Assembly (NCBI GenBank): GCA_964610245.1
Contig: CAZSVK010000032.1
Coordinates: 1 to 21,035 of the forward strand
Reading direction: 5' to 3'
Source: an uncultured bacterium
GTDB taxonomy: Bacteria > Muiribacteriota > UBA6191 > JACPRK01
Length of the DNA stretch: 21,035 nt
The notes beneath the pieces were generated by a model. That model was not told where the DNA came from, made no database searches, and saw only the letters and a list, made by a program, of their open reading frames with translations. Both the position numbers and the translations under genes were made by a program. Below are positions 2,596-18,506 of the stretch, piece by piece (position 1 is the stretch's first letter; each line of letters starts with the position of its first letter).

Positions 2596-3597
2596 TTACC
2601 GGCCTTTCACCCTTCGCGCCCCGGGGTGCTTTCTGGCTTGCCGCCCGCGCGCTCGAGCATGCGCCGAAGCGGGTTCCGCCAGGGGCCGAGCATCCGGGTG
2701 CGCATCGATCGGCTCGGCCAGATAGAGGGACTGGGATTCGTCGTAGTCGAGGAAGAGGATCTTGCTTCCGAGTTCGAACTTCGTCCCCGGACTGCCGTGG
2801 ACGTGAACCTCGAGCAGGTTGTGGTTGGGATCGTAGACCTGCGCGTAGGCCCCGCCGTCGCTGAGCGTGCCGGTGATGGTGCCGGTCTGGCCCACGCAAT
2901 CGCAGCGCTGCAGCGCATAGGTTTCCATCCGGGGCAGCACTCGGGCGAACGTCCTGGCGAAGGTCCTGCTGATCGCGAGCCCTCCGCCCATCGCCAGGGC
3001 CATCGAGAGCCAGACGTACACGAGCGGGGGCAACAGCTGGCCGAGCAGGTGGTTGGACACCAGCCCGATGATCCCGAAGGAGAGGGACAGGACGACCAGG
3101 ACCAGCATCAGGGGGGCCCGGTCGGCTCCGGGCAATGCCAGGGCCCACTGCATCCACCCAGGCGAGTGGGCCTCGTCGGTGCCGTGACCCGGCTCCGCGT
3201 CGTGGGCGGTGGCGAGCGTCGCATCGTGCACGACGTCGCCAGACGCCTCGGCATCGTGGTCGACCTCGGCGTGCAGGTCGTGGTCCGCATCGGCGTCCAG
3301 GTCATGGTCGACCTCGACATGTACCTCGTTCCCGAGATCGACGTGTACCTCGTTCTCGATCGCGACATCCAGATCGTGGTCGACGTCGGCATGGAAGTCG
3401 TGGTCGACGTCGGCGTGCAGATCGTGGTCGACGTCGGCGTGCAGGTCATGACCGACCTCCGCATCGTGACCGGCCTCGGCGTCATGGTCGGTATCATGCC
3501 CCTCCGTGCCCGGACCGAGAGCGGCCATCATCGACAGCATGCACGCCGTCAGGACGGGCAGCTCGAAGATCAGGTTCCACCAGGCCAGCCACTCCAT
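2596..3597 (-). CDS. yqiJ: NfeD/YqiJ-like membrane protein (about 334 aa) with an inserted His/Asp-rich (LHADVDHD)n repeat region between the first TM segment and the C-terminal TM plus OB-fold (NfeD) domain
   Basis: The six-frame ORF runs to 4431, but everything upstream of the Met at 3597 is antisense to the epimerase gene. MEWLAWWNLIFELPVLTACMLSMMAALG is a TM segment. The C-terminal part (LMLVLVVLSLSFGIIGLV...CDCVGQTGTITGTLSDGGAYAQVYDPNHNLLEVHVHGSPGTKFELGSKILFLDYD) resembles the NfeD short-form beta-barrel. The stop TAA at 2596-2598 lies 4 nt before the flotillin start. An alternative start is the Met at 3627. Confidence 0.7.
   Translation of the reverse strand: MEWLAWWNLIFELPVLTACMLSMMAALGPGTEGHDTDHDAEAGHDAEVGHDLHADVDHDLHADVDHDFHADVDHDLDVAIENEVHVDLGNEVHVEVDHDLDADADHDLHAEVDHDAEASGDVVHDATLATAHDAEPGHGTDEAHSPGWMQWALALPGADRAPLMLVLVVLSLSFGIIGLVSNHLLGQLLPPLVYVWLSMALAMGGGLAISRTFARTFARVLPRMETYALQRCDCVGQTGTITGTLSDGGAYAQVYDPNHNLLEVHVHGSPGTKFELGSKILFLDYDESQSLYLAEPIDAHPDARPLAEPASAHARARGRQARKHPGARRVKGR
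3253..3492. repeat. intragenic tandem array of about ten 24-bp units (consensus atcgtggtcgacgtcggcgtgcag), inside the yqiJ-like gene; encodes (L/F)HADVDHD on the minus strand
   Basis: Units phase exactly at 24 bp from 3253. Units 3397-3420 and 3421-3444 differ only at their first base. Degenerate copies extend to about 3190 and 3500. Confidence 0.85.
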
Positions 3598-3762: not shown

Positions 3763-4761
3763 TTGCGCGTGCAAGTCAGAGGCGGGCGCTTTGCGGTCAC
3801 CGGTGGGGCCGGATTCATCGGGAGCAACCTGGTCCGGGCGCTGCTGGCCGGCGGCGCGGCCAGGGTCGCGGTGCTCGACAACCTGGTCCGGGGCAGGGCC
3901 CGCCATCTGGAAGATCTTGCGGGCGACCGGCGCCTCGAACTGTTGCTCGGCGATCTTCGCGAGAGCTGGCCCGCGGAGGCGGTCGTGCGCGACTGCGACG
4001 CGGTCTATCACCTGGCCGCTCTGCGCATCCCTCGGTGTCAGGAACGGCCGGACGAGTGCCTGGACTCGATGGTTCGCGGCACCTATTCGCTCTTCGACGC
4101 CGCCGCCCGGCATGCCGTGAAGAAAGTGATCTACGCCAGTTCGGTGGCGGTCTACGGACAGCCGGCGCGCCTGCCGGTCGACGAAGAAGCCCCGGCGGCC
4201 CCGACGACTTTCTACGGCGCGGCCAAGGCGGCCGGCGAGGGATTGCTGAGGGCCTTCGGCGCGCGCGGCGCCTTTGGGTGGACCATCCTGAGGTGCTTCA
4301 ACGTGTACGGGCCTCGGATGGACCACGCCGGTCCGCACACCGAGGTCCTCGTCCGGTGGATGCGGGCCCTGCGGTGCGGCCAGCCTCCGAGGGTGTTCGG
4401 CGACGGAGAGACGACGCTCGACCTGGCGCACGTCGACGATGTCGTGACCGCCTACCTGGCGGCCCTGGCTCCCCGGGCGTCGGGGGGCATCTACAACATC
4501 GGCGCCGGTACCCAGGTCTCGCTGGCCTCCCTGGCCCGGATGCTGGCCGCTGCCGCGGGGAGCGGTCTCGAGCCCGAGTTCGCGGCGGCCCCTCCGGCGG
4601 CGCTCGCCCCTCGCATGGAGGCGTCCGTGGAACGGGCCCGTCGCGAGCTGGGGTTCGTGCCTCGTGTGCCCTTGAGCGATGGCCTTGCCTCGCTCTGGCG
4701 CTGGTTCTGCGAGGTCGACGCCCCTTCCGCCGACGCCCGGAACGCCGAGGTGGCGGAATGA
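3763..4761 (+). CDS. NAD-dependent epimerase/dehydratase, extended SDR family (332 aa); nucleotide-sugar 4-epimerase or decarboxylase type
   Basis: N-terminal Rossmann motif VTGGAGFIGSNLV and catalytic S...YGAAK (YxxxK) are present. The start is TTG at 3763 (alternative GTG at 3769). The stop TGA at 4759-4761 overlaps the next start as ATGA. Confidence 0.85.
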   Translation: MRVQVRGGRFAVTGGAGFIGSNLVRALLAGGAARVAVLDNLVRGRARHLEDLAGDRRLELLLGDLRESWPAEAVVRDCDAVYHLAALRIPRCQERPDECLDSMVRGTYSLFDAAARHAVKKVIYASSVAVYGQPARLPVDEEAPAAPTTFYGAAKAAGEGLLRAFGARGAFGWTILRCFNVYGPRMDHAGPHTEVLVRWMRALRCGQPPRVFGDGETTLDLAHVDDVVTAYLAALAPRASGGIYNIGAGTQVSLASLARMLAAAAGSGLEPEFAAAPPAALAPRMEASVERARRELGFVPRVPLSDGLASLWRWFCEVDAPSADARNAEVAE

Positions 4762-6566
4762 CCGCCATCCTGGGGCTGGGCTTCGGCATCGATTCGGCCG
4801 CGGCGCTGGTCGTGGACGGCCGCGTCGACTCCGCGGCCGCGCAGGAGCGGTTCGATCGCCGGAAGCACTCCCGGGCCTTTCCGATGGACGCGCTCAGGTT
4901 CTGTCTGGGCAGGGCCGGCCTCGACCCCGGCGCGCTCGAGCGGGTTGCGTTCTTCTGGAACCCGGGCGAGCACCTGCGAAACTTCGACTCCCGGCGGGGG
5001 ATGACCTACCGCGACCATCGCGAGTTCCTGGAACTGGTGCCCTCGCATCTGCTGGGCCTGGGGCCGGATCCCGGTCCGGCCGACGTGACCGAGCAGACCT
5101 TCCGCTTTGCCGGCGGGCGGAAGCTCACCATCCAGTATGTAGCGCACCACCTGTGCCACGCGGCCGCCGCCTTCTATCCGAGCGGCTACGACGAGGCGGC
5201 CATCCTGACCGCCGACGGCTACGGCGAGAGCACGAGCTTGCTGATGGCGCGCGGCCGCGACACGCGCATCGAATGTCTCGGCCAGGTGAGCTTTCCCAAC
5301 TCGCTGGGCGCCGTCTATGCTGCGGTGACCGAGCACCTGGGGTTTGCCCCCAACTGCGACGAGGGCAAGGTAATGGCCCTGGCCGCCTGCGCCGAGCCGG
5401 CCTTCTCCCGCGAGTTCGAGCAACTCCTGCGGCTGACCGACGAGGGCCGCTTCGAGGTCGACCTGTCGTACTTCTCGTTCTATCGCCCGGCCCGTTCTCG
5501 CTGTTCGGAAAAGTTTCAGGCGGCGTTCGGCCCCGCGAGGTCCCCTGGAGCGTCGCTCGAGAGGCGCCACGAACAGCTCGCGGCCAGCCTGCAGCAGCGC
5601 GTGGAACAGGCGCTCGTGCATGCCGCGCGGCACCTGCGCCGCGTCTCGGGCTGCCGGCGGTTGGTGATGGCCGGCGGGGTGGCCCTGAACACGGTGGCCA
5701 ACAGCCTCGTCCTGGCCGAGGCGGGGTTCGACGAGCTGTGGGTGTGCCCACCGGCGTCGGATGCCGGGGCGGCGATGGGGGCCGCCTTGTACGCGACCCA
5801 CGCGTTGGACGGAGCGCCGCGGGACGGCGCCGAGTACACCGACTTCCTCGGGCCCGACTACTCGGCCGACGAGGTCCGGGCGTTCCTGACGAGCGCCGGC
5901 GCCGCCTTCGAGGAGTGCCCGGAGCCCGCGCGCGAGGCCGCCCGCCGGCTGGCGGCGGGCGAGATCGTCGGCTGGTTCCAGGGCCGGATGGAGTACGGTC
6001 CCCGGGCGCTGGGAAACCGCTCGATTCTTGCCGATCCGCGCCAGGCCTCGATGAAGGACGTTGTGAACTCCCGCGTTAAACACCGCGAGCCGTTTCGCCC
6101 GTTCGCGCCGGCCTGCCCCGAGGAGTCCGCGCCGGCCTACTTCACGGGCGCGCACCCGTCGCCGTACATGATGAGGGTGTTCGGTTTCGCGCCGGGCTGG
6201 GGCGAACGCCTGGCGGCCGTCCGCCACGTCGACGGCACGGCGAGGCTGCAGACCGTGGCGGCCAGGCAGAACGCCAGCTTTCACAGCCTGCTGCTCGCGA
6301 TGGGCGAGGCGACCGGAACGCCGGTCCTCCTCAACACCTCGTTCAACGACGCGGGCGAGCCGATCGTGCGGACCCCGGCCGAGGCGCTCAAGTGCTTCTG
6401 CTCGACGGGGCTCGATTCGCTGTTCCTCGGGCCCTACCTGATTGCGAAACCTGCGGGCGAGCCGCCGCGGGGGGCGAGCGGGTGCAGGGCCGGAGCCCCT
6501 GCGTTCAATGATGACGGCGCAGCACGCGAAGCGGGCCAGCTCGCTCGGGCGCCCGGGCGGGAGTGA
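4758..6566 (+). CDS. carbamoyltransferase, NodU/CmcH/NovN family (602 aa)
   Basis: ATG at 4758 overlaps the upstream stop. The motifs GFGIDSAAALV and YVAHHLCHAAAAFYPSG match the family His-motif from memory. The C-terminal domain has GRMEYGPRALGNRSILADP, highly conserved in this family. The last ~35 aa form an extra tail. Confidence 0.9.
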   Translation: MTAILGLGFGIDSAAALVVDGRVDSAAAQERFDRRKHSRAFPMDALRFCLGRAGLDPGALERVAFFWNPGEHLRNFDSRRGMTYRDHREFLELVPSHLLGLGPDPGPADVTEQTFRFAGGRKLTIQYVAHHLCHAAAAFYPSGYDEAAILTADGYGESTSLLMARGRDTRIECLGQVSFPNSLGAVYAAVTEHLGFAPNCDEGKVMALAACAEPAFSREFEQLLRLTDEGRFEVDLSYFSFYRPARSRCSEKFQAAFGPARSPGASLERRHEQLAASLQQRVEQALVHAARHLRRVSGCRRLVMAGGVALNTVANSLVLAEAGFDELWVCPPASDAGAAMGAALYATHALDGAPRDGAEYTDFLGPDYSADEVRAFLTSAGAAFEECPEPAREAARRLAAGEIVGWFQGRMEYGPRALGNRSILADPRQASMKDVVNSRVKHREPFRPFAPACPEESAPAYFTGAHPSPYMMRVFGFAPGWGERLAAVRHVDGTARLQTVAARQNASFHSLLLAMGEATGTPVLLNTSFNDAGEPIVRTPAEALKCFCSTGLDSLFLGPYLIAKPAGEPPRGASGCRAGAPAFNDDGAAREAGQLARAPGRE

Positions 6567-6573
6567 AGCCGAC

Positions 6574-8592
6574 GTGAGCAAGAAGCCTTTCGCCAACGAG
6601 TCGCTGACCATCGTGATTCCCGCCTACAACGAGGAGGCGTCGCTCGAGACGGTGTTCCGGGAGGTCCGGGAGCACGCTGCCTTGCTGGTGGGCCGACTCG
6701 AGATGATCGTGGTGGACGACGGCTCGACCGACGGTACCGGCGAGGTGGCCGCTCGCCTCGCCCGGGAGCACCCCTCCACGCGGGCCTTTCACCATCTGCG
6801 CAACCAGGGCAGCGGGCAGGCGATCCTGACCGGCGCGCGCCAGGCCCGGACCGCGCTGGTGATGTACGTGCCCGCCGACGGACAGTTCCATCTGCCGGAG
6901 CTGGCGACCTACCTGGAGGCGGCGCGCCGCGGCCAGGTCGTCATGGGGGCTCGGCCTGAGCGGCCCGACTACTCGGCGTTCCGCCGGCTGGCGTCGCGGG
7001 TGTTCCTGCGTCTGGCCAACGCCGTGCTCGGGACCGACTTCGCGGACCTCAACTGGGTGCACCTGTGGCGCCGCGAGGTCTTCGAAGACACCACGCTCAG
7101 AGCGCGAGGCGTGGCCTTCCTCGCCGATCTGGTGGCCCAGGCGCTGGCCCGCGGCATGTCGGTGGTCCAGGTGCCCTCGCTGCAGCAGCCCCGTCGGGGC
7201 GGCCGCGCGAACGGGACCCGGCCGGCGGTGATCGCGCTGGCGGCGTTCGAACTCGGCCGCATCTGGCTGCGCTCTCGCCGCCGCCTGGCCCCCCGGATGC
7301 GCCCCGGCCGAGGAGTTCTCCAGAGCTATCTCGGTGACTTCTGGTGGCCGGGCGGGCGTCACCGGACCGGCTCCGCCACGGCCTCGGGCAGGGGCCAGAC
7401 GGTGCTGCCCAGGTTGGAGGAGGTCGAGCTGGCGCCGGTGATCCGGGCCCCCTGGATGGACTCGGAAGACCGCCTGCTCCTGCCGATCGGCGTGGCGGTC
7501 GAGCCGATGCCCGAGGGGGCCGAGGTGCTGGCCCGGGTCGAAGGCAGGCCGGTGCTGGTGAAGGAAGAGGCCGGCCTCCGCTTCCTGTTCGACGCCGAGC
7601 AGGCCGCTGCCTGGCGACTGACCGAGGCCTTTCTCTGCCGCCGCAGACCGCTTGCGGCCTGGCTCCCTCCCGGCTACATCTCGCTGCTGCCGGGTCCTGT
7701 GCGGCTGGCGCTCCACCGGCTCTCGACCCTTGGGCGTTCGCCTCGCACGGGCCTGGCCGTGTGGCCCGCCGACCCGTCGGTCGAGTGGCTCAGGTGGGCG
7801 CACCTTCAGGCCCGGGGCTCCCGCGGCGAGGACCGGCAACCGCTTCCCTTCTGGCCCGAGGGGAAGCGCTGGGCCCTGGTGGTGACGCACGACGTCGACA
7901 CGGTCGAGGGGCTGGGCTCCGTCCCCATCGTGGCCGATACCGATCGCGAGCTGGGCTTCCGCCCCTGCTGGTACGTGACCGGAGAGGTGGCTCGCGCGGG
8001 TCTCTCTCAGCTCGACGGGCTGGTGGCTCGCGGTCACGAGCTGGGCCTCCACGGGGATCGACACGACCTGCGGCTGGCCTATCTGCCGCGCCCGGAGATC
8101 GAGCGCCGGCTCGAGACCTGTGCCGACCTGATCTCCAGGTGGAAGATGCGCGGCTACCGGTCGCCCGGTCTTCTGATGACGCGCCGCCTCGCTGGGGTCG
8201 TGGCGCGCTTCTTCGAGTACGACAGCTCGGTGCCGGACAGCGACGTCGCCAGCCCCGCGGGCGCGATTCGAGGCTGCGGCACGGTGTTCCCGTTCGCGCG
8301 CCCCGAGGGCGGGCTCGAGTTGCCGCCGACCCTCCCGCTGGAAGACAAGCTCGCCGCCCTGGGCTACCCCCCGCGAGAGATGCTGGGCATCTGGAGGCAG
8401 AAGATTGATTTCATCCGCAAGGTAGGAGGGATGGCGGTCGTGACCACGCACGCCGAACCCCACCTGGGCGGCTCTCGAGAGTTGCTGGAGGTCTACGCCG
8501 AGTTCCTGGGCGGTCTGGCCGGAGACGCCGACGCCTGGGCGGCCCAGCCCTCCGAGGTGGCGGCCTGGTGGGCCCGCCGGGGAGAACGCTGA
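6574..8592 (+). CDS. bifunctional fusion: N-terminal GT2 polyprenyl-phosphate glycosyltransferase (ArnC/GtrB/DPM1-like) plus C-terminal NodB-type polysaccharide deacetylase (ArnD-like); about 672 aa with a ~220-aa middle region of unknown function
   Basis: GT2 motifs read directly and aligned from memory with E. coli ArnC: LTIVIPAYNEEASL (VSVVIPVYNEQESL), IVVDDGSTDGT (LLIDDGSSDNS), VPADGQFHLPEL (LDADLQNPPEEI), PERPDYSAFRRLASRVF (QNRQDSWFRKTASKMI). The C-terminal LVVTHDVDTVEG...GHELGLHGDRHD is a NodB motif-1/2 pattern of the ArnD RIDVDT type. The start GTG at 6574 is 8 nt after the carbamoyltransferase stop, with GGGAG upstream. An alternative start at ATG 6508 would overlap the previous gene. 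Confidence 0.8.
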   Translation: MSKKPFANESLTIVIPAYNEEASLETVFREVREHAALLVGRLEMIVVDDGSTDGTGEVAARLAREHPSTRAFHHLRNQGSGQAILTGARQARTALVMYVPADGQFHLPELATYLEAARRGQVVMGARPERPDYSAFRRLASRVFLRLANAVLGTDFADLNWVHLWRREVFEDTTLRARGVAFLADLVAQALARGMSVVQVPSLQQPRRGGRANGTRPAVIALAAFELGRIWLRSRRRLAPRMRPGRGVLQSYLGDFWWPGGRHRTGSATASGRGQTVLPRLEEVELAPVIRAPWMDSEDRLLLPIGVAVEPMPEGAEVLARVEGRPVLVKEEAGLRFLFDAEQAAAWRLTEAFLCRRRPLAAWLPPGYISLLPGPVRLALHRLSTLGRSPRTGLAVWPADPSVEWLRWAHLQARGSRGEDRQPLPFWPEGKRWALVVTHDVDTVEGLGSVPIVADTDRELGFRPCWYVTGEVARAGLSQLDGLVARGHELGLHGDRHDLRLAYLPRPEIERRLETCADLISRWKMRGYRSPGLLMTRRLAGVVARFFEYDSSVPDSDVASPAGAIRGCGTVFPFARPEGGLELPPTLPLEDKLAALGYPPREMLGIWRQKIDFIRKVGGMAVVTTHAEPHLGGSRELLEVYAEFLGGLAGDADAWAAQPSEVAAWWARRGER

Positions 8593-9416
8593 TGCCTGGA
8601 AAGAGCTACCAGTTCGACACGGTGGGGGTGCTCTACTCGGGCGGCACCGACAGCACGCTCGCGGCGGTCCTGATGTTGCGCGAGGCCCGCAAGGTCGTCC
8701 TGCTGACGTTCGACCCCGGCTACGTCTTCTTCCTGGCGAACACCAAGGTACACGCGCGGATGCTCGCGGAGCGCTTCGGCGAGGAGAGGGTCGAGCAGCG
8801 CATCATCGACGTCCGGCCGCTCGTGGGCAGGCTGCTCTTCGGCGCCGCTCGGAGCGACTTCGAGAAGTACGCCTTCGGTCTGACCAGCCTGGTCTGTCTG
8901 GGCTGCAGGCTGTCGATGCACGCGGCGGCGATCATCCACCTGCTCGAGACCGGCATTCCGTATCTGGCCGATGGGGCGATCCGTCAACAGTGCGACACGC
9001 CGGAACAGATGGAATCGACCCTGGAGAGCCAGCGGGAGCACTACATGGAGCGCTACGGGCTGGTGCACATGTCCCCTCTCTACGAAGAGGCGCGTTCCGA
9101 CCTGGTGCTGCAGGAGATGGGCCTGGCGGCCTTCCCCGCCCTGAAGAAGCAGTTCATCCTGTACGACACGCAGGCGACCTGCCCGTTCGGAGTGAGTGCC
9201 GACGTTTATGCTCGCATCTTCTACCGGCCCTGGCTGATGGGCGACCGCCGGGAGCGCGACGCCGCCTGCTACCGCGAGGACAAGTACCCGGTGATGGAGC
9301 GCGTCATACGCGAGCACTTCGAGTCGAAGGGGCAGAGCATGGAAGAACTCGTGCGGACCATCCGCGCGACCGTCGAGCGAGATCGGCAGTGGAACTCGCA
9401 GGGAGCGGGCCAGTGA
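8592..9416 (+). CDS. PP-loop ATPase of the adenine-nucleotide alpha-hydrolase superfamily (274 aa); QueC/ExsB-like, or a sugar amidotransferase of the WbpG/PseA type
   Basis: SGGxDS PP-loop motif (VLYSGGTDSTLAAVL) 12 residues from the N-terminus. A Cys pair (LVCLGCRL) is present. Strong RBS GGAGAA 5 nt before ATG 8592, which overlaps the upstream stop (TGATG). Confidence 0.7.
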   Translation: MPGKSYQFDTVGVLYSGGTDSTLAAVLMLREARKVVLLTFDPGYVFFLANTKVHARMLAERFGEERVEQRIIDVRPLVGRLLFGAARSDFEKYAFGLTSLVCLGCRLSMHAAAIIHLLETGIPYLADGAIRQQCDTPEQMESTLESQREHYMERYGLVHMSPLYEEARSDLVLQEMGLAAFPALKKQFILYDTQATCPFGVSADVYARIFYRPWLMGDRRERDAACYREDKYPVMERVIREHFESKGQSMEELVRTIRATVERDRQWNSQGAGQ

Positions 9417-9553
9417 GCGACTTGACGGGGCACCGTCTTCGCGCCCTGTTGCGGTGGCCGCTGGCGGTGTTGCTGATCCCGTTCGGGGTTCTCCTCGGGC
9501 TCTGCGGCCTGCTCGACAACATCTGCCGCGGCCTCGCCGACCGGCGCCGCTGA
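9413..9553 (+). CDS. possible small membrane peptide (46 aa), GTG start overlapping the stop of the PP-loop gene
   Basis: VSDLTGHRLRALLRWPLAVLLIPFGVLLGLCGLLDNICRGLADRRR contains one hydrophobic helix. GTGA overlap at 9413-9416. There is no independent support, and it could be a chance ORF given the high GC. Confidence 0.25.
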   Translation: MSDLTGHRLRALLRWPLAVLLIPFGVLLGLCGLLDNICRGLADRRR

Positions 9554-9564
9554 CCGGCGGACGC

Positions 9565-12500
9565 CTATTCGGGCCGGCCGGAACGCTCGCTCGGTTCCTT
9601 CGGCTGAGGGGGGCCGATGACGGGCACGGTGTCGAGCGAGGGCGCCCCCGGCGAGAGCGGCGGCCGCTGCAGCCTGACGACGCCGAAGCCGCTGGCCACG
9701 CCTCCGAGGCCGAGCAGCAGCTCGTGCTCGTCCAGCGGCCGGATCGCCAGCTTGAATGCCACCTTGGATTCGTACGCGGGAAGCGGATCCGGCAGGACTT
9801 CCATCCGCACGAGGATCCGGCCCTCGGGGGTGAAGCCCAGGAGTCGGTTTCCCTCCACCAGAACGTAGAGGTTACCCTTCGGGCCGCAGGTCATGCGAGA
9901 TAGCGCGGTGACGTCCACGGCCCGCCAGAAGTCGAACTCCCTCCCTTCCGCCGAGAGCACGGCGATACCGCCCCTCCGCTGGGTCGTGACGTAGATCCGC
10001 TGCCCGTCCGGCGAGCTGCAGAGCGACGTCGCGCCGAAGCAGTTCCAGGCGGGCTTCGGCTCGCCGTCGGGCTCGAACCGCAGGATCTTCCCCGACAGAG
10101 AGTCGGCGACCAGCACGGTGGACGAGGCCGCGTCGTAGGCGATCCCGCTGAGCCGGTGCGTCTCGCCGGCAAAGGTGACGAGACGGTTCAATTGCCCGTC
10201 CGGTCGGATGAACAGCAGCCGGCTGGCATAGCAGTCGGCCAGGAAGAGCGTGCCGTCGGGCGCGGTCGCGAGCGAGTAGCCGAAGCGCAGGAAGCCCCGG
10301 GTGGGAGGCAACTCGATCGGCCGGTCCTGCTGGTCTCGCAGCCCCTTCCAGGAGCGCACCGGGGCCCCGTCCAGGTCGAGGCAGAGGAGGGGGGCCCGGC
10401 CGTGGCCCAGCAAGTAAATGCGACCGTTCACAAACGCCATGTCTTGCGTGCGCCCTCCGATTTCGGGCTCGACCCAGTATCGGTACCGGACGCTGGCCAC
10501 CGAAAGTTCCGGCTCCACGACCGGTCTGGCGCGGAAGAGCGCGTTCGCCGGGAGCTTGCGCAGGAACACCTCGGACGGCACCTCGGAGAACCGGTCGAAA
10601 GACGGCGGGCGCCAGGAGAACGAGATCGGGCCGACCGTCGTCCGGGCCGTGGTCGCGCGGGCCGAGAAAGCCTGCCAGCCCTCCGGGAACCACCCGGAGA
10701 GGCCGCACCCTCCGGCGCTCGAGCTGGCCGTGCGCTCCCCGATCGAGAGGATGGCACCGCGGGTCCCGTCGAACCGGAAGTCCCACAGTCCCTCCTGGTG
10801 CAGATAGAGCGCCCCGGTCCACCGGTAACCGCGGTCCGGTTGCAGGGCGATGCCCGGCATGTTCAGGCCCGAGACCAGCAGGTCCGGCGACGTGTTCACA
10901 TCCAGCCCGGAGGACAGATAGAGCCCCTGGAAGGAATGGGCCTCCCGCCGGGAAACGGTGTAGAGGTCGAGTCCGCAACCGCTGCCCGCGGGCCCCTCCC
11001 AGCGCTCGTGCCGTCCGCCGGGAAACGTCTCTTCCAGCAACTTCTGCCACTCCTCCTTGCCCAGGACGTAGCTGACGTCGGACCAGGAAGGGAAGACGGG
11101 AAAGAGGTTCAGACCGAGGGCCGAGACCACGCCGAAGTTGTTCAGGAGGAAGGCGAGGTTGGGAGCCATGCCCATCTGTCCCGTGAGGAACGGATAGCGT
11201 ACGGTCGACTGAGAGACGACAACCTGGCGCTCGGGCGCGAGGTGCGCCGCGGCGCGGAGAAGCTTCTCCTGCGGGGGCATCATCCCGATCTGCGAGCACA
11301 TCCTCACCAGGCTGTGGTGCAGGTCCGAGAACTCGGCGGCGATCAGGGCCAGGAACGCGGCCATCAGGACCAGGCCGCGTCGGCCGGTCGCAAGACACGT
11401 CCAGAGTCTGTCGAGCCCCAAGGCGAGCCAGATGTAGAGCGGCACGATGCCGAGCAGGAAGCGGCGCGCGGCGGCAGCCTCGAAGTGCACGACCAGGGGC
11501 GGGAGAAGCGCCAGGGAGATGAGCGAGACCGTCAGCGCGTCGGTCAGCGTGGAACCAGTCGGCGCGGCGGGGGCGAGCGCTCCTGGGCCGGCTGCGCCGC
11601 GGGGGGGGGCTGGCTGCGGCCGCGTCGGGTCCCGGTGCCCGGCCCGCAACAGAGCGAGCGCCCCGAGCAGGGCCAGCGGCACCAGGCTGCGAGGAAGCGG
11701 CACGAACCCCTCCAGATACGGCTCCACTCCGAGGAAGATGCCGGCAACGTCCGGCACCCGCCGCAGGGCGTGTCCCAGCGCCTCGACCGGGGACATCCCT
11801 GCCGTCGTCATCCTCGTCAACCGCCCGGCGTACAGCTCGAGTGTCGAGGCGTCCTGGACGAAAGGCGAGAAGAGGGCGAGCGTGACCACGAACGTCAGCA
11901 AGCAGCCGAGCATCAGCCGGCCGGGCAACGTCCGGCGTGACGACCAGCATCCCAGGGCCAGGATCGTCAGCAGGATGGGCGGGACGATCCGGAAGGCCGG
12001 ATAGGTATGGAGTCCGGCGCCCAGCATCAGCCCCATGCCCAGGAAGTCGGTCAGCCGTCCGGTCGACAGCGCCCGGACCATGAAGAGCAGCGCGCCGGCT
12101 TCGAACACGGCGGGGTAGATGATGGTGTTGGCCTGTCTGCTGAAGTGGCACAGCGTGGGGTCGACGGCGGCGAGCAGCGCGGCCAGGGCCGCGGGCAGAC
12201 GCCGCGCGAGCCTGCGAAACAGCCAGAACAGGAGCACCGGACAGCAGGCCCCGAGCAGCGCCGCCGGAAGCCGGAAGGCGAGCATCGTGGGGCCGAACAG
12301 GCTGAAGCTGAAGGCGTGCAGATAGAAGAACAGCGCCTCCTCGCCCGGCACGGCCCGATCCAGCACCGGGCCCGGTTGCCACGTGTGATTGAGGATGCCG
12401 GCGATGAGCCCGCCGTTGATTCCCTCGTCGAGGTTGGGCGAGGGCGGCCGGAACTCCAACCAATAGAACCTGGCGAGCAATGCCAGCGCGAAGACCGCCA

Positions 12501-12714
12501 GCGTGATGAGCTGGTCCGCCGAGGAGAACGGCTCGGGTCTCGTCGGTTTCTCTTGCGGCCGAGCCGCGCGGTAGAGCAACACCGCCACCGCCGACATCAG
12601 GCACGCGGCCGGCAGCAGGTTCCCCCGCTCGGAGGGCGCCAGAGCGAGGTTGAGCAGACTGGCCCCCGCCAGCCCGAGAAACACCCATCTTCGTCCTGTG
12701 GAACCCTGGACCAC
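9565..12714 (-). CDS. large GT-C-fold membrane glycosyltransferase (GT39 PMT / GT83 ArnT-like, multi-TM N-terminus with DE loop motif) fused to a PA14-like middle domain and a C-terminal NHL-repeat beta-propeller (1049 aa)
   Basis: GTG at 12714 and TAG at 9565-9567. The N-terminal ~450 aa has more than 10 hydrophobic helices, and PNLDEGINGG sits in the first loop; a DE motif there is the PMT/ArnT hallmark. The middle GYRWTGALYLHQEGLWDFRFDGTRGAILSIGERT is PA14-like. C-terminal repeats LFLADCYASRLLFIRPDG, VLVADSLSGKILRFEPDG, IYVTTQRRGGIAVLSAEG and LYVLVEGNRLLGFTPEG are NHL-like. GGAGG lies 11 nt upstream of the start. Confidence 0.8.
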   Translation of the reverse strand: MVQGSTGRRWVFLGLAGASLLNLALAPSERGNLLPAACLMSAVAVLLYRAARPQEKPTRPEPFSSADQLITLAVFALALLARFYWLEFRPPSPNLDEGINGGLIAGILNHTWQPGPVLDRAVPGEEALFFYLHAFSFSLFGPTMLAFRLPAALLGACCPVLLFWLFRRLARRLPAALAALLAAVDPTLCHFSRQANTIIYPAVFEAGALLFMVRALSTGRLTDFLGMGLMLGAGLHTYPAFRIVPPILLTILALGCWSSRRTLPGRLMLGCLLTFVVTLALFSPFVQDASTLELYAGRLTRMTTAGMSPVEALGHALRRVPDVAGIFLGVEPYLEGFVPLPRSLVPLALLGALALLRAGHRDPTRPQPAPPRGAAGPGALAPAAPTGSTLTDALTVSLISLALLPPLVVHFEAAAARRFLLGIVPLYIWLALGLDRLWTCLATGRRGLVLMAAFLALIAAEFSDLHHSLVRMCSQIGMMPPQEKLLRAAAHLAPERQVVVSQSTVRYPFLTGQMGMAPNLAFLLNNFGVVSALGLNLFPVFPSWSDVSYVLGKEEWQKLLEETFPGGRHERWEGPAGSGCGLDLYTVSRREAHSFQGLYLSSGLDVNTSPDLLVSGLNMPGIALQPDRGYRWTGALYLHQEGLWDFRFDGTRGAILSIGERTASSSAGGCGLSGWFPEGWQAFSARATTARTTVGPISFSWRPPSFDRFSEVPSEVFLRKLPANALFRARPVVEPELSVASVRYRYWVEPEIGGRTQDMAFVNGRIYLLGHGRAPLLCLDLDGAPVRSWKGLRDQQDRPIELPPTRGFLRFGYSLATAPDGTLFLADCYASRLLFIRPDGQLNRLVTFAGETHRLSGIAYDAASSTVLVADSLSGKILRFEPDGEPKPAWNCFGATSLCSSPDGQRIYVTTQRRGGIAVLSAEGREFDFWRAVDVTALSRMTCGPKGNLYVLVEGNRLLGFTPEGRILVRMEVLPDPLPAYESKVAFKLAIRPLDEHELLLGLGGVASGFGVVRLQRPPLSPGAPSLDTVPVIGPPQPKEPSERSGRPE

Positions 12715-12837
12715 GATCCTTCACGCCTCCACGCCCGGGGACATTCTAGGGCCAGAAGGCGAGGAAGTCATCCGGGCCGACGCCACACACCCGCTCGTCC
12801 TGGGCGCTTGGGGGAGCCGCGGGACCTGGCGGCGCGT

Positions 12838-14214
12838 TCAGATCAGGTCGTGGCTGGGCGACGAGTTCACGAAACCCGCGAGCCGCTTCAGCCCGAGCCA
12901 GGCGTCGACGGGCCTCGACATGACCCTCCCGAGCTGCCGCAGAGCGTAGCCCGGCCGCAGGTAGAACCGGCGGTAGAACTTCTGCTCGGCAGCGAGGGTG
13001 CTGTCGGGCGCCGTGACGGGTCGGAAGGGGAAGAGCGACGATGGCCGGGAGTCGAGCCCCAGCGAGGTGCCGGGCCAGTACTGGAGGCGGGTGACGATGA
13101 CGAAGTCGAGGTCCCAGTCGATGGCGGCGCGGATGCTGGCGTCGATGTCGGAGGGGGTCTCCCAGGGCGTGCCGACGATGAAGAAGCCGCTCAGCTCGAG
13201 GCCCGCGTCGCGCACCTGGCGGACGAGCCTGGGCATCTGCTCGGCGCGGTAGCCCTTCCGCAGGGAGTCGAGCACGAGTTGCGAGGTGCTCTCCAGACCG
13301 ACGTAGAGGCGGCGGCAGCCGGCGCGTCGCATCTCGGCCAGCAGCGAGGGCTCGAGGCAGTCGAGGCGCGAGAGGGCGGTCCATTCGAGGTCCAACCGCT
13401 CGCGCGACAGCAGACGGCAGAGTTCGAGGAGACGCGGCCGGTCGAGCGGCAGCGTGTCGTCCATGAAGCGGAGGTTGCGGACTCCGTGGCGGCCGGCGAG
13501 CAGGCGGGCCTCGTCGAGGATGTTGCCGGGACTGCGGTAGCGCATCTGGCGGCCGTAGGTGCGCGTGCAGAAGACGCAGGCGTGCGAGCAGCCGCGGGCA
13601 CTGAGGGTGACCGCGATCGGGCCCGGGCGCAGCGGCTCGGCGTAGAGCGAGAGGTCGACCAGCGAGTGGTCGGGCAGCGGCAGCCGGTCGAGGTCGTCGA
13701 TGCGGGGCCGCCGCGGGTTGACCACCGGTTGGCGGCCGTCCCGGAAGGCCAGGCCCGGGACCCCGGCGAGCGTCGTGCGGGTGGCGAGGCAGTCGAGGAG
13801 GTCGGCGAAGACGAGTTCGGGCTCGTCCAGGAGCACGACGTGCAAGGGGCAGTGCTCGAGCACGTCGGCCGGAAACTCGGATGGGAGGTAGCCGGTGGCG
13901 CAGACGGTGGCGTGGGGGTGGTCGGAAACCAGCGCGGCGGCGGCGGCGAGGTCGCCCGGGAAGGTCGAGAAGCCCACGGCGAGCACGATGACGTCCGGCC
14001 CGAAGCGCACCGCCTCTCGGCGCACGCCGTCGAGGTCGAGGTCCCGGGCGACGGCGTCGACGACCAGCACGTCGCTGCCCTTCCAGTCGCGGGCGAGCGC
14101 CGCAAGCCCCATCAGCTCCATCGGAGGCATCAGGAAGTTGGGCGCGTAGTACGACGCGGTCCAGCGGCGCATGACGCGCTCCCGGGCCGGTGGATTGAGG
14201 AAGAGGACTCGCAC
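12838..14214 (-). CDS. B12-binding radical SAM enzyme, class B (458 aa); probable methyltransferase or other radical tailoring enzyme
   Basis: N-terminus MRVLFLNPP starts the cobalamin-binding domain. The radical SAM cysteine triad is CSHACVFC (CxxxCxxC). GTG start at 14214 with GGGGAG upstream. Stop TGA at 12838-12840. Confidence 0.85.
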   Translation of the reverse strand: MRVLFLNPPARERVMRRWTASYYAPNFLMPPMELMGLAALARDWKGSDVLVVDAVARDLDLDGVRREAVRFGPDVIVLAVGFSTFPGDLAAAAALVSDHPHATVCATGYLPSEFPADVLEHCPLHVVLLDEPELVFADLLDCLATRTTLAGVPGLAFRDGRQPVVNPRRPRIDDLDRLPLPDHSLVDLSLYAEPLRPGPIAVTLSARGCSHACVFCTRTYGRQMRYRSPGNILDEARLLAGRHGVRNLRFMDDTLPLDRPRLLELCRLLSRERLDLEWTALSRLDCLEPSLLAEMRRAGCRRLYVGLESTSQLVLDSLRKGYRAEQMPRLVRQVRDAGLELSGFFIVGTPWETPSDIDASIRAAIDWDLDFVIVTRLQYWPGTSLGLDSRPSSLFPFRPVTAPDSTLAAEQKFYRRFYLRPGYALRQLGRVMSRPVDAWLGLKRLAGFVNSSPSHDLI

Positions 14215-14271
14215 GACTCGATTCTACTCCCCCCGCCGGTGAGCGTCACCCGGCCGGATTCGTGGGAGTTC

Positions 14272-14850
14272 CTACGGTGTCCGGAGCCGCCTCGGCGCGA
14301 CCGGGCGGGCGGGGTTGCCGGCGACGACCGCCCCGTCGGGGACGTCTCGCGTCACGACGGCGCCGGCGCCGACGAGCGCGCCCCGGCCGACGACGACCCC
14401 CGGGAGGATGGTGGCGTTGACTCCGATGCGGGCGCCGCTGCGGACGACCGGGCCCTCGAGGTCCCCGGGGCCGCGGACGGGGTACTTGTCGTTGGCGAAG
14501 ACGACGCCCGGGGCGACGAAGACGTCGTCCTCGAGGACGGTGAACTGGGCGAGGTAAACTCCGGAGTGTATCTTGACCCGATCGCCGACCGTGCAGCCGT
14601 AGTCGACGATGCTGTTGCTCCAGATCGAGACCTGGCGCCCGATGCGGGTCTGCTCGCGAACGACGACGTTGTGCCCGGTCTCGAAGTCGTCTCCGATGAC
14701 GACGTTGGTGTAGAGGACGGTGCCCGAGCGCAGACGGGCCCGGGCGCCGAGCACGCCGGGCACGATCTCGATGGCCCGCGAGGGCCGGTAGTCGAGCAGC
14801 ACGCCGGGCTCGAGCCCCGGATTGGCTTGCCCTTCGCTCACGGGACTCAC
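14272..14850 (-). CDS. hexapeptide-repeat (left-handed beta-helix) acyltransferase (192 aa); sugar N- or O-acetyltransferase of the WbbJ/PglD/QdtC type
   Basis: Repeated [LIV]-G-x-x-x-x hexapeptides (IGRQVSIWSNSIVDYGCTVGDRVKIHSGVYLAQFTVLEDDVFVAPGVVFAND). The GTG start at 14850 overlaps the upstream stop (GTGA). Confidence 0.8.
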   Translation of the reverse strand: MSPVSEGQANPGLEPGVLLDYRPSRAIEIVPGVLGARARLRSGTVLYTNVVIGDDFETGHNVVVREQTRIGRQVSIWSNSIVDYGCTVGDRVKIHSGVYLAQFTVLEDDVFVAPGVVFANDKYPVRGPGDLEGPVVRSGARIGVNATILPGVVVGRGALVGAGAVVTRDVPDGAVVAGNPARPVAPRRLRTP

Positions 14851-15323
14851 GGTTTGCCGGCCCCGGTCCTGGCAGGCGCGGGCGCGGGGGGCTCAGCCTT
14901 GGGAGGGGCCTTGCCGAGCGGGTCGGCGACGCAGGGGCTGGGGAGAAAGCCGGACTGCTTGCGCTCGTCGAGACTGGCCTTGGCGTCCTTCTTCTGCAGG
15001 GCGTCGAGCGCCTCGGCGAGCGGCTTGACCCGGCCCGAGAGCTTGCGGTCGTGGCGGGCGTACCAGAGATAACGCCGCAGGCACTTGGCCTCGTGCCTCA
15101 GGGTCTCGGCCTCCATCTTGATCGCCTTGTCCTCGGCGCCGTGCTTGACCAGCAGCCTCTCGCGCTCGAGCCTGAGCCGGAGCCAGCGCAGCGAGGCCTC
15201 GCAGTCCTTGTCGATCGCGGCGCCGGAATCGGGTAGCGGCTCGTCGGAGGCCGCGGCCGGCCCGGATCCCTGGCAGGCGAGCCCGAGGGCGAGGAGCGCG
15301 GCCAGGGCGAGCGGGCGCGTCAT
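14847..15323 (-). CDS. small secreted or lipoprotein-like protein (158 aa) with a signal peptide, four Cys, a charged helical core and a Pro/Ala-rich C-terminal tail
   Basis: ATG at 15323 overlaps the HEAT-2 stop (ATGA). The signal peptide is MTRPLALAALLALGLACQGS. The tail is FLPSPCVADPLGKAPPKAEPPAPAPARTGAGKP. The stop overlaps the acyltransferase start. Confidence 0.6.
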   Translation of the reverse strand: MTRPLALAALLALGLACQGSGPAAASDEPLPDSGAAIDKDCEASLRWLRLRLERERLLVKHGAEDKAIKMEAETLRHEAKCLRRYLWYARHDRKLSGRVKPLAEALDALQKKDAKASLDERKQSGFLPSPCVADPLGKAPPKAEPPAPAPARTGAGKP

Positions 15324-16720
15324 TGCAGGATCTTCGCGAAGGCGCGCAGCTCGGGGGTCTCGGCGATGGCCACGGTCTTGTTGCGGTAGGCCTGGGCGAT
15401 CGCCTTGCCCATCCGGACGAAGGAGGCGCGCATCTTGGCGCGGTACTGGTCGAGGCCGCTGGTGAGGATCTGGGTCTTCAGCTCGCCGTCGGGGGCGAGG
15501 CTGTGCGAGAGGGAGCGCAGGTAGTCCTGGTAGCGCGTGATCTCGTAGTAGTGGACCATCAGGGCCTTGTCCTTGAGCTCGCCGCGGCGGCAGAGTTCGA
15601 AGCCGTCGACGCCTATCTTGAACAGCAGGCGCGAGAGCGTGGCCTTGACCTCCGCCTCGCGCAGCTCCTGGGCGATGTTGAGGATCTCGCGCTTGAAGGT
15701 GCGCTCGACCTTCTCCCGGACACGGGCCTGGAACTCCTCGTCTTCCGGGGTCGCCTTCGCGGGAGGCGTGGGGATGTAGGGCATGTTGGAGCTGGCGTCG
15801 TTCAGTCCCAGCTCCTGGCGCTGCTTGAGCAGCTCCCGGATGTCGACCCCCTTGGCCGCGAGAATCTCGATCGCCTGCTGGCGCACGGTGGGATCGTTGT
15901 CGTCTATCCGGCGGGTGATGGCCGCGACGGCCCTCTCGCCGGTGCAGTCGGCGAGGCACTTCACGGCCCGGAGGCGAACCCCTTCGTAGGCGTCGCTGGC
16001 GGCGCGCACGAGCAGGTCTTCCAGATCGAGCTTGGAGAGCTGGGCAATGGCGTAGACCGCGCTCTCGCGCATCGCGACCTTGTCGCTGTCGAGCATCGAC
16101 GCGAGGTACTCCTTGACGTGAGGATCGCCGAAGCGGCCCAGCGCCTTGACGACGTTGGAGCGCACCCGGTTGTTCTCGTCGTTGAGGAGCGGTACCAGCA
16201 GCGGGATGTGTCGCTTGTCGCCCAGGTCTTCGAACACCTCGACCGCATTCGCCCGCACGCGGTCGTCTGAGTGGGAGAGGAACCTGCTCGTGTCGGCCAG
16301 CACCGACGGGTCGGTGCACCTCCTCAGATTCGCGAGGATCGACGCGATCTTGACCGTGTCGGTCTCCCGCACCAGTTCGGCCACGAGCTGCCGGCCGGCG
16401 GCCGGCGGAGGAGGCGGAGCGGCCGGCTGCTGCGGCGCGGCCTGGGACCTGGCGACGGCCCCGGCGAGCGCCTCCCGGGAGATGGACTGGGTCTGGCGGC
16501 CGCCCGCATCCATGTAGTTGGCCGCCTTCTTGGCGAGGAAGGCAATGTCGCCGTTAGGTCCGGTGCACAGCTCGTTCACCTTGCGGCGGAGGATCTGCAG
16601 CTCTTGCTGGGTGACGCCGTCGTCGAAGCTGATGCGGGTGACGGTCGTCAGGGCGAGCGTCTGGATCTCCGAATCGGAGTCGGACAGATCCTCGATGATG
16701 CGCTGGATCTTGAGGGACAT
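15320..16720 (-). CDS. HEAT-repeat protein, paralog 2 (466 aa): conserved N-terminal segment, Pro/Ala linker, about 5 PBS-lyase-type HEAT repeats, conserved C-terminal domain of unknown function
   Basis: HEAT-like repeats DDRVRANAVEVFEDLGDKRHIPLLVPLLNDENNRVRSNVVKALGRFGD... are present. The C-terminal motif YYEITRYQDYLRSL is shared with the upstream paralog. ATG at 16720 lies 18 nt after the upstream stop. Confidence 0.75.
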   Translation of the reverse strand: MSLKIQRIIEDLSDSDSEIQTLALTTVTRISFDDGVTQQELQILRRKVNELCTGPNGDIAFLAKKAANYMDAGGRQTQSISREALAGAVARSQAAPQQPAAPPPPPAAGRQLVAELVRETDTVKIASILANLRRCTDPSVLADTSRFLSHSDDRVRANAVEVFEDLGDKRHIPLLVPLLNDENNRVRSNVVKALGRFGDPHVKEYLASMLDSDKVAMRESAVYAIAQLSKLDLEDLLVRAASDAYEGVRLRAVKCLADCTGERAVAAITRRIDDNDPTVRQQAIEILAAKGVDIRELLKQRQELGLNDASSNMPYIPTPPAKATPEDEEFQARVREKVERTFKREILNIAQELREAEVKATLSRLLFKIGVDGFELCRRGELKDKALMVHYYEITRYQDYLRSLSHSLAPDGELKTQILTSGLDQYRAKMRASFVRMGKAIAQAYRNKTVAIAETPELRAFAKILQ

Positions 16721-16738
16721 CGCTTGGCGGAAGGCAGG

Positions 16739-18421: not shown

Positions 18422-18506
18422 GAACCGGACTCCTGCCGGACGGTGCCGGCATCTGCCGATCATATCGATGCAGCGCCCGAAAGTAAAGGCACCCGGGGCG
18501 TCGGGC

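Follow-up and report, generated by a model that had tools for sequence, protein, structure and literature searches.

A conserved gene cluster of an uncultured bacterium, proposed to build a modified amino sugar on polyprenyl phosphate

The genes of the cluster

We analysed a stretch of 21,035 nucleotides from an uncultured bacterium (contig CAZSVK010000032.1, positions 1 to 21,035; the whole stretch is called the window here), in which positions 3763-14214 carry a cluster of genes for glycosyl transfer, deacetylation and sugar tailoring. Sequence comparison with related loci confirmed that this cluster is real, a conserved gene set that had not been described previously. The stretch has about 70% GC and its long open reading frames (ORFs) are mostly spurious; the real genes were picked by third-position GC (GC3 frame analysis). 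On the plus strand, the GC3 frame and Pfam located genes for a short-chain dehydrogenase/reductase (SDR; 3763-4761), a carbamoyltransferase (4758-6566) and a 672-aa fusion of a family 2 glycosyltransferase (GT2) to a carbohydrate esterase family 4 (CE4) domain (6574-8592). These are followed by genes for a 274-aa PP-loop (AANH) adenylating enzyme resembling YcfA (8592-9416), recognised by profile and fold, and for a 46-aa peptide with a single transmembrane (TM) segment and a GTG start (9413-9553), which was recognised through small-ORF homologues and tblastn and had been missed in the preliminary description of this DNA. All junctions of these four genes and the peptide gene overlap or nearly abut: SDR and carbamoyltransferase genes share ATGA, fusion and PP-loop genes TGATG, PP-loop and peptide genes GTGA, and only 7 nt separate the carbamoyltransferase from the fusion gene. 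Converging on this operon from the minus strand are genes for a 1049-aa PMT_2 glycosyltransferase of the GT-C type (9565-12714; Pfam, hydropathy), a B12-binding (class B) radical SAM enzyme (12838-14214; Pfam, motif) and a hexapeptide N-acetyltransferase (14272-14850; Pfam, PDB matches). The preliminary description had proposed this domain inventory, and Pfam/NCBIfam, profile and fold comparisons confirmed all of it.

The SDR matched Pfam Epimerase (1.6e-53) and carries the motif SSVAVYG...YGAAK. It scores best as an extended SDR resembling the UDP-hexose/N-acetylhexosamine (HexNAc) 4-epimerases of the GalE/WbpP type, with 148 bits on the NCBIfam GalE model versus 29.5 on ArnA. In support of this, its top PDB matches (7ys8, 6wjb, 6dnt) were deposited as UDP-glucose 4-epimerase or NAD-dependent epimerase/dehydratase family proteins, while UXS and ArnA rank lower. 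The suggestion that this enzyme stands in for the dehydrogenase/decarboxylase half of ArnA was thus rejected. The carbamoyltransferase (Carbam_trans_N 2.2e-51, Carbam_trans_C 1.5e-67) is of the NodU/CmcH type, with a Kae1-like N-terminal and a YrdC-like C-terminal domain. NodU is its best curated model, with 171.5 bits against a 1000-bit cut-off, so that it is not a NodU equivalog.

The GT2 domain of the fusion (6574-7290) matched Glycos_transf_2 (2.3e-22) and contains the motifs VVDDGS (residues 46-51) and PADGQ (100-104). Three ArnC sequences lead its PDB matches (2.3e-13), followed by Pyrococcus DPMS (6e-11) and GtrB (1.1e-5), and a family profile sharpened these matches to 2e-17 to 1e-10. 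Moreover, when the AlphaFold model of the fusion (mean pLDDT 68.8, GT2 domain mostly ~70-90) was searched with Foldseek, ranks 1-13 were all ArnC, DPMS or GtrB. Both sequence and model support the earlier proposal that the domain belongs to the polyprenyl-phosphate glycosyltransferase class, these being its nearest characterised relatives; it did not group with cytoplasmic Leloir enzymes. Identity to E. coli ArnC is 26% over 217 residues, and the domain scored 63.8 bits on the NCBIfam ArnC model (PRK10714), versus a cut-off of 529. Standalone GT2 orthologues, only 225-242 aa long, score highest on PpgS or ArnC models; that of locus L168 (232 aa) has as its best curated model PpgS, whose profile length is 226 residues. 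PpgS model scores were 38-58 bits versus a 370-bit cut-off. The domain would thus work like ArnC or PpgS and be a member of neither family, as no equivalog cut-off was reached.

No TM helix was found in this domain, and no hydropathy segment reaches 1.6 across the 672-aa fusion. C-terminal TM helices are present in ArnC, GtrB and PfDPMS, and the 226-residue PpgS model implies none in PpgS. The TM-less form has a precedent in this short model, on which the L168 orthologue scores best. PpgS is the mycobacterial polyprenyl-phosphate-GalNAc synthase and requires the small membrane protein Rv3632 (PMC9671496). The structural study of ArnC characterises polyprenyl-phosphate glycosyltransferases by a GT-A domain, a DADLQ motif whose third and fifth residues bind metal (D96 and Q98 in GtrB), and two pairs of helices, one amphipathic and juxtamembrane, the other transmembrane (PMC12690121). 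PADGQ keeps D102 and Q104, the third and fifth motif residues, and the model places helices 135-152 and 217-238 at juxtamembrane positions of the ArnC-aligned region, their amphipathicity being judged by eye only.

The second enzymatic half of the fusion is a predicted CE4 (NodB-superfamily) de-N-acylase domain with ArnD-like motifs (7864-8592): THDVDT (438-443), LHGDRHD (492-498), YRSPG (528-532), PPTLPLEDK (584-592) and THAEPHLGG (625-633). The Asp-His-His metal triad and the catalytic Asp, Arg and His are all kept, and D440, D442, H493, H497, R529 and H626 are conserved across the loci carrying the cluster. The Pfam call (Polysacc_deac_1, PF01522) stayed below its gathering score (17.3 versus 23.1 bits) and was secured by profile and fold evidence. 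The ArnD model (NCBIfam PRK15394, cut-off 382 bits), on which E. coli ArnD scores 523 bits, gave no match at E<=5 with the window domain and three orthologues. In hhalign comparisons with ArnD, a diverse CE4 alignment (A5) reached 85% probability and a shallow alignment of the fusion (A1) only 3.7%, and the DVDT, HExGLH...H, P.TLP..D and HAE motifs are shared. The fused NodB/ArnD-like domain of the preliminary description is thus retained as a remotely ArnD-like domain, as judged by alignment; an identity of the two fused halves with the Arn equivalogs themselves is not, ArnC falling far short of its cut-off and ArnD giving no match.

Between the two domains, 7294-7860 gave no Pfam match. This linker, modelled with a pLDDT of ~40-83 in ten-residue blocks, corresponds to the N-terminal part of the ~410-aa standalone deacetylases (33% identity to L168, 31% to L173) and would be the N-terminal domain of the deacetylase half. 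In L168 and L171, GT2 and deacetylase are encoded separately by neighbouring genes, and in L173 by genes that lie ~6 kb from each other; we therefore consider the window protein a gene fusion. Full-length forms are rare: 5.8 billion proteins yielded seven clusters of them, and fusion-profile scans of genome and metagenome contig collections returned GT2-domain matches only (query ~1-270) and no further full-length fusion. Note that in three fusion homologues of the Candidatus Wallbacteria type (P0004, P0006 and P0007; L001 10001-12001, L002 10001-11998) the His-His motif of CE4 is lost (LLGDRFD, LLATDSE) and Arg replaces the Gln of PADGQ; P0006 and P0007 also lack the D-x-D motif. These three are possibly pseudoenzymes or repurposed proteins.

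The PP-loop protein scored 27 bits on the DUF7411/QueC Pfam model, versus a cut-off of 28.7. Its closest solved relative is YcfA (PDB 9kq6; family profile E 1.3e-23, 22% identity), which is also the best Foldseek match of its model (pLDDT 89.5, target-normalised TM-score ~0.8), ahead of TtuA, LarE, QueC and argininosuccinate synthetase. The protein carries SGGTDS at residues 16-21 (numbering of the 274-aa protein, that is, the 282-aa numbering minus 8), and its D20, Q133, E138 and Q139 align with the catalytic Asp19, Gln129, Glu134 and Gln135 of YcfA. Of these four, Q133 is nearly invariant in the family alignment and the other three fully so. The family differs from YcfA in an invariant Cys triad, C102, C105 and C197 (CxxC...~92 aa...C; alignment A3), which YcfA lacks and whose spacing recalls the [4Fe-4S] ligands of TtuA-type thiolases. 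It differs also in having no YcfC-like lyase gene nearby and in its substrate, here presumably a sugar substituent and not GTP. In 6-thioguanine biosynthesis, YcfA uses the four residues named above to adenylate guanine at its amide carbonyl and to add a thiol there (PMC12494993). Since the likeness to YcfA comes together with an ever-present carbamoyltransferase, these alignments suggest that a carbamoyl, ureido or acetamido carbonyl is activated and then substituted by N or S; the carbonyl that the enzyme prepares for such a replacement is probably that of an amide, a ureido group or a carbamate. The protein has more than 120 close homologues, and an exhaustive search of 1.84 billion representatives gave 11 matches at E<=1e-30, a number that rises to 167 at E<=1e-10. 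Our literature search found nothing on DUF7411 or on this enzyme combination.

The 46-aa peptide, with the motif LIPxGVxLGxxGL, has homologues of 45 aa in L003, 63 aa in L006 and 53 aa in L168, each encoded downstream of the PP-loop gene, and tblastn detects it in L004, L006 and L173. By analogy with Rv3632 and PpgS, we speculate that it may anchor or stimulate the TM-less GT2. In L171 a 57-aa ORF occupies the matching position.

The GT-C protein matched PMT_2 above the cut-off (4e-16; 60.1 versus 26.1 bits), as the preliminary description had it. Hydropathy indicates ~10-12 hydrophobic TM segments in residues 1-540, with a D-E motif in the first loop (NLDEGING at residue 94), and these are followed by a soluble C-terminus of ~500 aa that ends in an NHL-like beta-propeller (weak PDB matches to 2p4o and the TRIM71 NHL domain). 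No pairwise similarity to E. coli ArnT was found. The radical SAM enzyme (Radical_SAM 3.2e-21) carries the CxxxCxxC motif as CSHACVFC (209-216) and a B12-binding match of 1.1e-5 that lies below the cut-off (25.7 versus 32.1 bits); we assign it tentatively to class B by these sequence features. Its best NCBIfam models are HpnJ (142.7 versus a 577.6-bit cut-off) and then BchE, and it is not an HpnJ equivalog.

The gene set in related loci

The preliminary description had set joint conservation of these genes as a check, and neighbourhood comparison established it in distant lineages. The SDR, carbamoyltransferase, GT2, CE4 and PP-loop genes recur in L004, L006, L003, L168, L171 and L173 at 30-68% identity. 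L004 and L005 are near-identical contigs, and L006 (57%) and L003 (46%) are further relatives; all four retain the order SDR, carbamoyltransferase, fusion, PP-loop, peptide. The cluster is unfused in L168, a Vicinamibacteria contig, where the order is SDR, carbamoyltransferase, GT2 (232 aa), deacetylase (410 aa), PP-loop and 53-aa peptide, then an LPG_synthase_TM protein, a second SDR, the radical SAM enzyme, an unknown gene, two GT-C genes (YfhO-like, then PMT_2) and a GFO/IDH/MocA gene. L171 and L173 carry variants of the cluster. Finally, L169, L170 and L172 have a reduced set of carbamoyltransferase, GT2 and PP-loop genes, with a DegT gene beside the PP-loop gene in L169 and L172.

By gene, the SDR is kept at 30-53% identity in L006, L003, L168, L171 and L173, the carbamoyltransferase at 44-67% in 9/9 of the related loci compared outside the Wallbacteria, and the PP-loop protein at 42-68% in nine related loci. 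The radical SAM enzyme was seen in every full-cluster locus with a long enough contig (66% identity in L003, 45% in L168, 43% in L173 and 30% in L171), and the L168 protein scores 194 bits on the HpnJ model. Besides the window, L004, L003, L168 and L173 encode a PMT_2 GT-C. That of L003 is orthologous by sequence in both its membrane and its propeller part (29-37% and 34-37% for the N- and C-terminal parts); tblastn with the window protein did not match the L168 and L173 proteins, where orthology is at the level of Pfam only. Together, these comparisons of sequence make carbamoyltransferase, GT2 and YcfA-like PP-loop enzyme the most widely conserved core, a trio that points to uncharacterised sugar chemistry and that may also work without a GT-C.

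ORF, Pfam and NCBIfam scans found neither an aminotransferase nor a flippase gene in the window, as had been stated from the start, and a search beyond it recovered candidates for both in the relatives. DegT aminotransferase genes occur in L003, L169, L171, L172 and L173; the one from L003 scores about equally on PseC (260 bits) and ArnB (258.5 bits), which model sugar 4-aminotransferases. An MprF-like flippase-type protein (PF03706/TIGR00374), of a family that differs from ArnE/F, is encoded in L168 and L173. In addition, the best model for the relatives' GFO/IDH/MocA dehydrogenases is UDP-GlcNAc 3-dehydrogenase, and that for the second SDR of L003 is HpnA. Two of the variants contain additional redox enzymes within the cluster: a second B12-binding radical SAM enzyme with a DUF362/ferredoxin protein in L173 (8589-14493), and a SPASM-type radical SAM enzyme with an ankyrin-repeat protein in L171 (2657-6174).

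The acetyltransferase and the flanking genes

The hexapeptide enzyme (Hexapep 6.2e-24), a predicted left-handed beta-helix, is by its PDB matches an N-acetyltransferase of the QdtC/FdtD/WlbB class: QdtC 3fs8 (3.5e-40), the WxcM-like 4mzu (1.8e-29), 7s3u (2e-23) and WlbB 3mqg (3.3e-22). The QdtC, WxcM-like and WlbB entries N-acetylate 3-amino nucleotide sugars. The window enzyme is an uncertain member of the cluster. Using tblastn it was found in no other cluster locus, the contigs of L004, L005 and L006 being too short to tell, and L003, L168, L171 and L173 have no counterpart while all of them keep the deacetylase. The family is large and generic, with more than 4,400 homologues at E<=1e-20, thousands of them ~60% identical. 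Moreover, a 4-nt overlap joins the start of the gene to the stop of its upstream neighbour, which encodes a secreted-looking protein of 158 aa (14847-15323, -) and itself overlaps the first of two HEAT-repeat genes; this arrangement predicts translational coupling between the acetyltransferase and the HEAT/kinase genes. In the short gaps upstream of the radical SAM and GT-C genes sit two sigma-70-like sites that share the -10 element TAGAAT (14249-14221 and 12771-12743, -; 2 found versus 0.4 expected), the former between the acetyltransferase and radical SAM genes; this suggests that the radical SAM and GT-C genes have their own promoters, apart from the acetyltransferase. The earlier call of an N-acetyltransferase thus stands; the transient acetylation ascribed to it is unsupported. 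Possibly it caps a 3-amino group made by enzymes encoded elsewhere. Note that a 64%-identical homologue lies in L174 (10001-11297) beside a 234-aa GT2 that is 31% identical to the window GT2 domain, in a locus with no carbamoyltransferase and no PP-loop gene.

The small protein, two HEAT-repeat proteins and a Ser/Thr kinase form a minus-strand module (14847-20666) that is syntenic with, and 50-69% identical to, L001 11998-15596 and L002 16457-21998. The HEAT and kinase proteins are 61-69% identical to those of Candidatus Wallbacteria metagenome-assembled genomes, and in two of these (L001, L002) the module adjoins a homologue of the fusion, the rest of the cluster being absent. This would mean either kinship of the window organism with the Wallbacteria or a functional tie between the module and the GT2-CE4 protein. 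At the end of the window, 20687-21034 (-) encodes the C-terminal piece of an ABC-type ATPase, UvrA-like by eye with its LDEPTTGLH signature; this short piece gave no significant Pfam match. At the opposite flank of the cluster, a 661-aa SPFH/flotillin-like protein with a long coiled-coil (606-2591, -) adjoins a YqiJ/NfeD-like membrane protein (2596-3597, -) whose long His/Asp-rich repeat (HDLHADVDHD...) looks like a metal-binding tract. This pair has no connection to the cluster. An Rfam scan of the window found no RNA family and no riboswitch.

A proposed pathway, its rivals and known systems

We propose, with a probability of about 0.6, that 3763-14214 is a copy of a conserved cluster that would build a modified amino sugar on polyprenyl phosphate for delivery outside the cytoplasm by the GT-C. 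Every step is drawn from homology and gene context. Judging from its family, the GalE-like SDR would supply a UDP-HexNAc epimer. On the cytoplasmic side of the inner membrane, the TM-less PpgS/ArnC-type GT2 would move the N-acetyl sugar to polyprenyl phosphate, as its sequence and fold class indicate. The fused CE4 domain, with its catalytic residues in place, would then strip the N-acetyl group from the presumed lipid-linked substrate. No dedicated acetyltransferase would be needed for this, because the UDP-HexNAc is already acetylated, as in the Flm and PpgS pathways. Tailoring of the sugar, in an order that we do not assign, would fall to the NodU-type carbamoyltransferase, the YcfA-like adenylating enzyme and the B12-binding radical SAM enzyme. 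The lipid-linked sugar would be flipped, a step for which the relatives' MprF-like PF03706 protein could serve, and the PMT_2 GT-C with its periplasmic beta-propeller would pass it to an envelope acceptor. At the level of genes, this keeps the outline of the preliminary description (lipid carrier, de-N-acylation on the carrier, transfer by a GT-C) without its ArnA stand-in. A bolder extension, which we hold only tentatively and regard as doubtful, is that the trio and the radical SAM enzyme make, on the lipid carrier, a sugar substituent new to envelope glycobiology. As one example, a carbamoyl or ureido group could pass through an adenylated intermediate to a thiocarbamoyl, amidino/guanidino or cyclic ureido group.

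Several observations weigh against the lipid-carrier proposal. Neither a flippase nor an aminotransferase is encoded in the window. The two TM helices seen in ArnC and GtrB are missing from the GT2 domain, the first DXD aspartate is replaced by Pro in PADGQ, and every curated equivalog cut-off was missed by a wide margin. The GT-C has no detectable similarity to E. coli ArnT (BLASTP E 1.8), its family profile finds no solved GT-C in the PDB by sequence, and no PMT_2 gene lies within 10 kb in L169, L170, L171 and L172. The deacetylase is kept in L171 but absent from L169, L170 and L172. Moreover, the HpnJ model of the radical SAM enzyme and the MprF/HpnL-type protein of the relatives fit a direct glycolipid pathway equally well. 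The main rival, although we think it unlikely, is such a direct route to an aminoglycolipid, on the model of HpnI/K/J(/L), GpgSDF or HexSDF. Here the GT2 would glycosylate a resident membrane lipid, the deacetylase would expose the amine, the radical SAM enzyme would remodel the sugar (for instance by an HpnJ-like ring contraction) and the MprF-like protein would flip the lipid, leaving the GT-C a separate role. It has precedents: operons of glycosyltransferase, CE4 deacetylase and MprF-like flippase make glucosaminyl-phosphatidylglycerol (GlcN-PG) and HNHDRG (PMC11483062, PMC10128005), and HpnI, HpnK and HpnJ make the bacteriohopanetetrol (BHT) cyclitol ether (PMC5462960). Also in its favour are the HpnJ scores (142.7 bits in the window, 194 in L168), the HpnA-like second SDR of L003, the PF03706 proteins beside GT2 and deacetylase in L168 and L173, and the loci without a nearby GT-C or deacetylase (L169, L170, L172) or without a GT-C (L171). 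However, the nearest relatives of the GT2 in sequence and fold are polyprenyl-phosphate glycosyltransferases, HpnI-type models were not among its curated matches, HexS is annotated as an MGDG synthase and not as a GT2, all Hpn models stay far under their cut-offs, and a PMT_2 GT-C, of a family that uses polyprenyl-phosphate-sugar donors, is co-conserved in five loci.

A strict analogue of the Arn pathway, in which the hexapeptide enzyme N-acetylates the donor, the CE4 domain removes the same acetyl group on the carrier and the SDR replaces the ArnA decarboxylase, seems to us quite improbable. Its logic has a precedent in ArnC, which takes only an N-formylated donor (PMC12690121), the acetyltransferase belongs to a class whose substrates are 3-amino nucleotide sugars, the relatives have 3-dehydrogenase-like and aminotransferase genes to match, and the L174 homologue stands beside a short GT2. 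Against this, the acetyltransferase is missing from four loci that keep the deacetylase, belongs to a very large and generic family, and is coupled to the HEAT/small-protein module with a promoter-like site separating it from the radical SAM gene; the SDR is 4-epimerase-like and not ArnA/UXS-like, and the window has no formyltransferase and no UDP-sugar 6-dehydrogenase. Largely refuted, and in our opinion very improbable, is an ordinary polysaccharide or O-antigen locus of unconnected neighbours, or a Nod-factor-like system (NodC/NodB/NodU/NodL). The inventory of GT2, NodB-like, NodU-like and hexapeptide acetyltransferase genes superficially matches the nod genes, with NodU as the best curated model for the carbamoyltransferase; but lineages with only 30-68% identity conserve the set of genes and much of their order, the gene junctions overlap, the NodU cut-off is far from reached, and the GT2 is of a short, non-processive type that scores 16.9 bits on NodC, over the N-terminal part only. 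With this GT2, and no NodA-like acyltransferase, the Nod-factor reading was rejected.

Turning to the systems with which the proposed lipid-carrier pathway can be compared, the closest in logic is the mycobacterial galactosamine (GalN) pathway, followed by Flm/Lgm and Arn. In mycobacteria, an epimerase feeds PpgS with the small Rv3632, and an unidentified flippase and deacetylase act before the GT-C Rv3779 (PMC9671496). This mycobacterial and corynebacterial pathway (Rv3634c, PpgS, Rv3632, Rv3779) shares with the cluster a UDP-HexNAc 4-epimerase, a short TM-less polyprenyl-phosphate GT2, a small membrane protein, removal of the N-acetyl group from the lipid-linked sugar and GT-C transfer of an amino sugar outside the cytoplasm (PMC9671496). 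It differs in that its deacetylase is unidentified, while here one is encoded and fused to the GT2; in that the cluster adds a carbamoyltransferase, a YcfA-like enzyme and a B12-binding radical SAM enzyme; and in its acceptor, which here cannot be arabinogalactan. Arn likewise combines a polyprenyl-phosphate GT2 (ArnC being the top PDB match of ours), CE4 de-N-acylation on the carrier and then a GT-C. In contrast to Arn, the window has neither half of ArnA, no ArnB and no ArnE/F, its acyl group is presumably acetyl and not formyl, its GT-C is unrelated to ArnT in pairwise comparison, its GT2 lacks TM helices, and all Arn equivalog models fail.

In the FlmF2/NaxD/FlmK system of Francisella and the LgmA/C/B system of Bordetella, which decorate lipid A with GalN or glucosamine (GlcN), an ArnC-like GT2 makes undecaprenyl-phosphate-HexNAc, a deacetylase works on this lipid-linked product, and transfer of the hexosamine falls to an ArnT-like GT-C. 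The N-acetyl group, which comes in with UDP-HexNAc in the Flm pathway, is a transient protecting group there, and NaxD and LgmC are YdjC-family deacetylases, not CE4 enzymes. PMC8149597 cites FlmF2 as an ArnC-like glycosyltransferase, and the paper on the NaxD deacetylase. Unlike the cluster, these systems have no carbamoyltransferase, PP-loop enzyme, radical SAM enzyme or GT2-deacetylase fusion. The Hpn, GpgSDF and HexSDF systems share with it a glycosyltransferase and a de-N-acetylase acting on a membrane-bound HexNAc and, for Hpn, an HpnJ-like B12-binding radical SAM enzyme and, in the relatives, an MprF/HpnL-type protein. They differ in their acceptors (bacteriohopanetetrol, phosphatidylglycerol or glycosyl-diradylglycerol), in lacking a GT-C and in using glycosyltransferases of other types.

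Lipid-carrier amino-sugar decoration, as carried out by Arn, Flm/Lgm and PpgS, governs surface charge, resistance to polymyxin and antimicrobial peptides, phage adsorption and immune recognition, and the cluster would carry this logic into poorly known phyla. The natural fusion of GT2 and deacetylase argues for a physical coupling of glycosyl transfer and de-N-acetylation at the cytoplasmic membrane face, and its CE4 domain is a candidate for the type of deacetylase used by systems such as the mycobacterial GalN pathway. The carbamoyltransferase, the YcfA-like enzyme and the B12-binding radical SAM enzyme form a compact, strongly conserved and uncharacterised trio that probably installs new sugar chemistry; the plus-strand operon spans less than 6 kb, and can hence be tested directly by heterologous expression. 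If the bolder extension on a new substituent, which we regard as doubtful, is true, it would define a new class of cell-surface modification shared by uncultivated Acidobacteriota, Myxococcota-like and Wallbacteria-related lineages.

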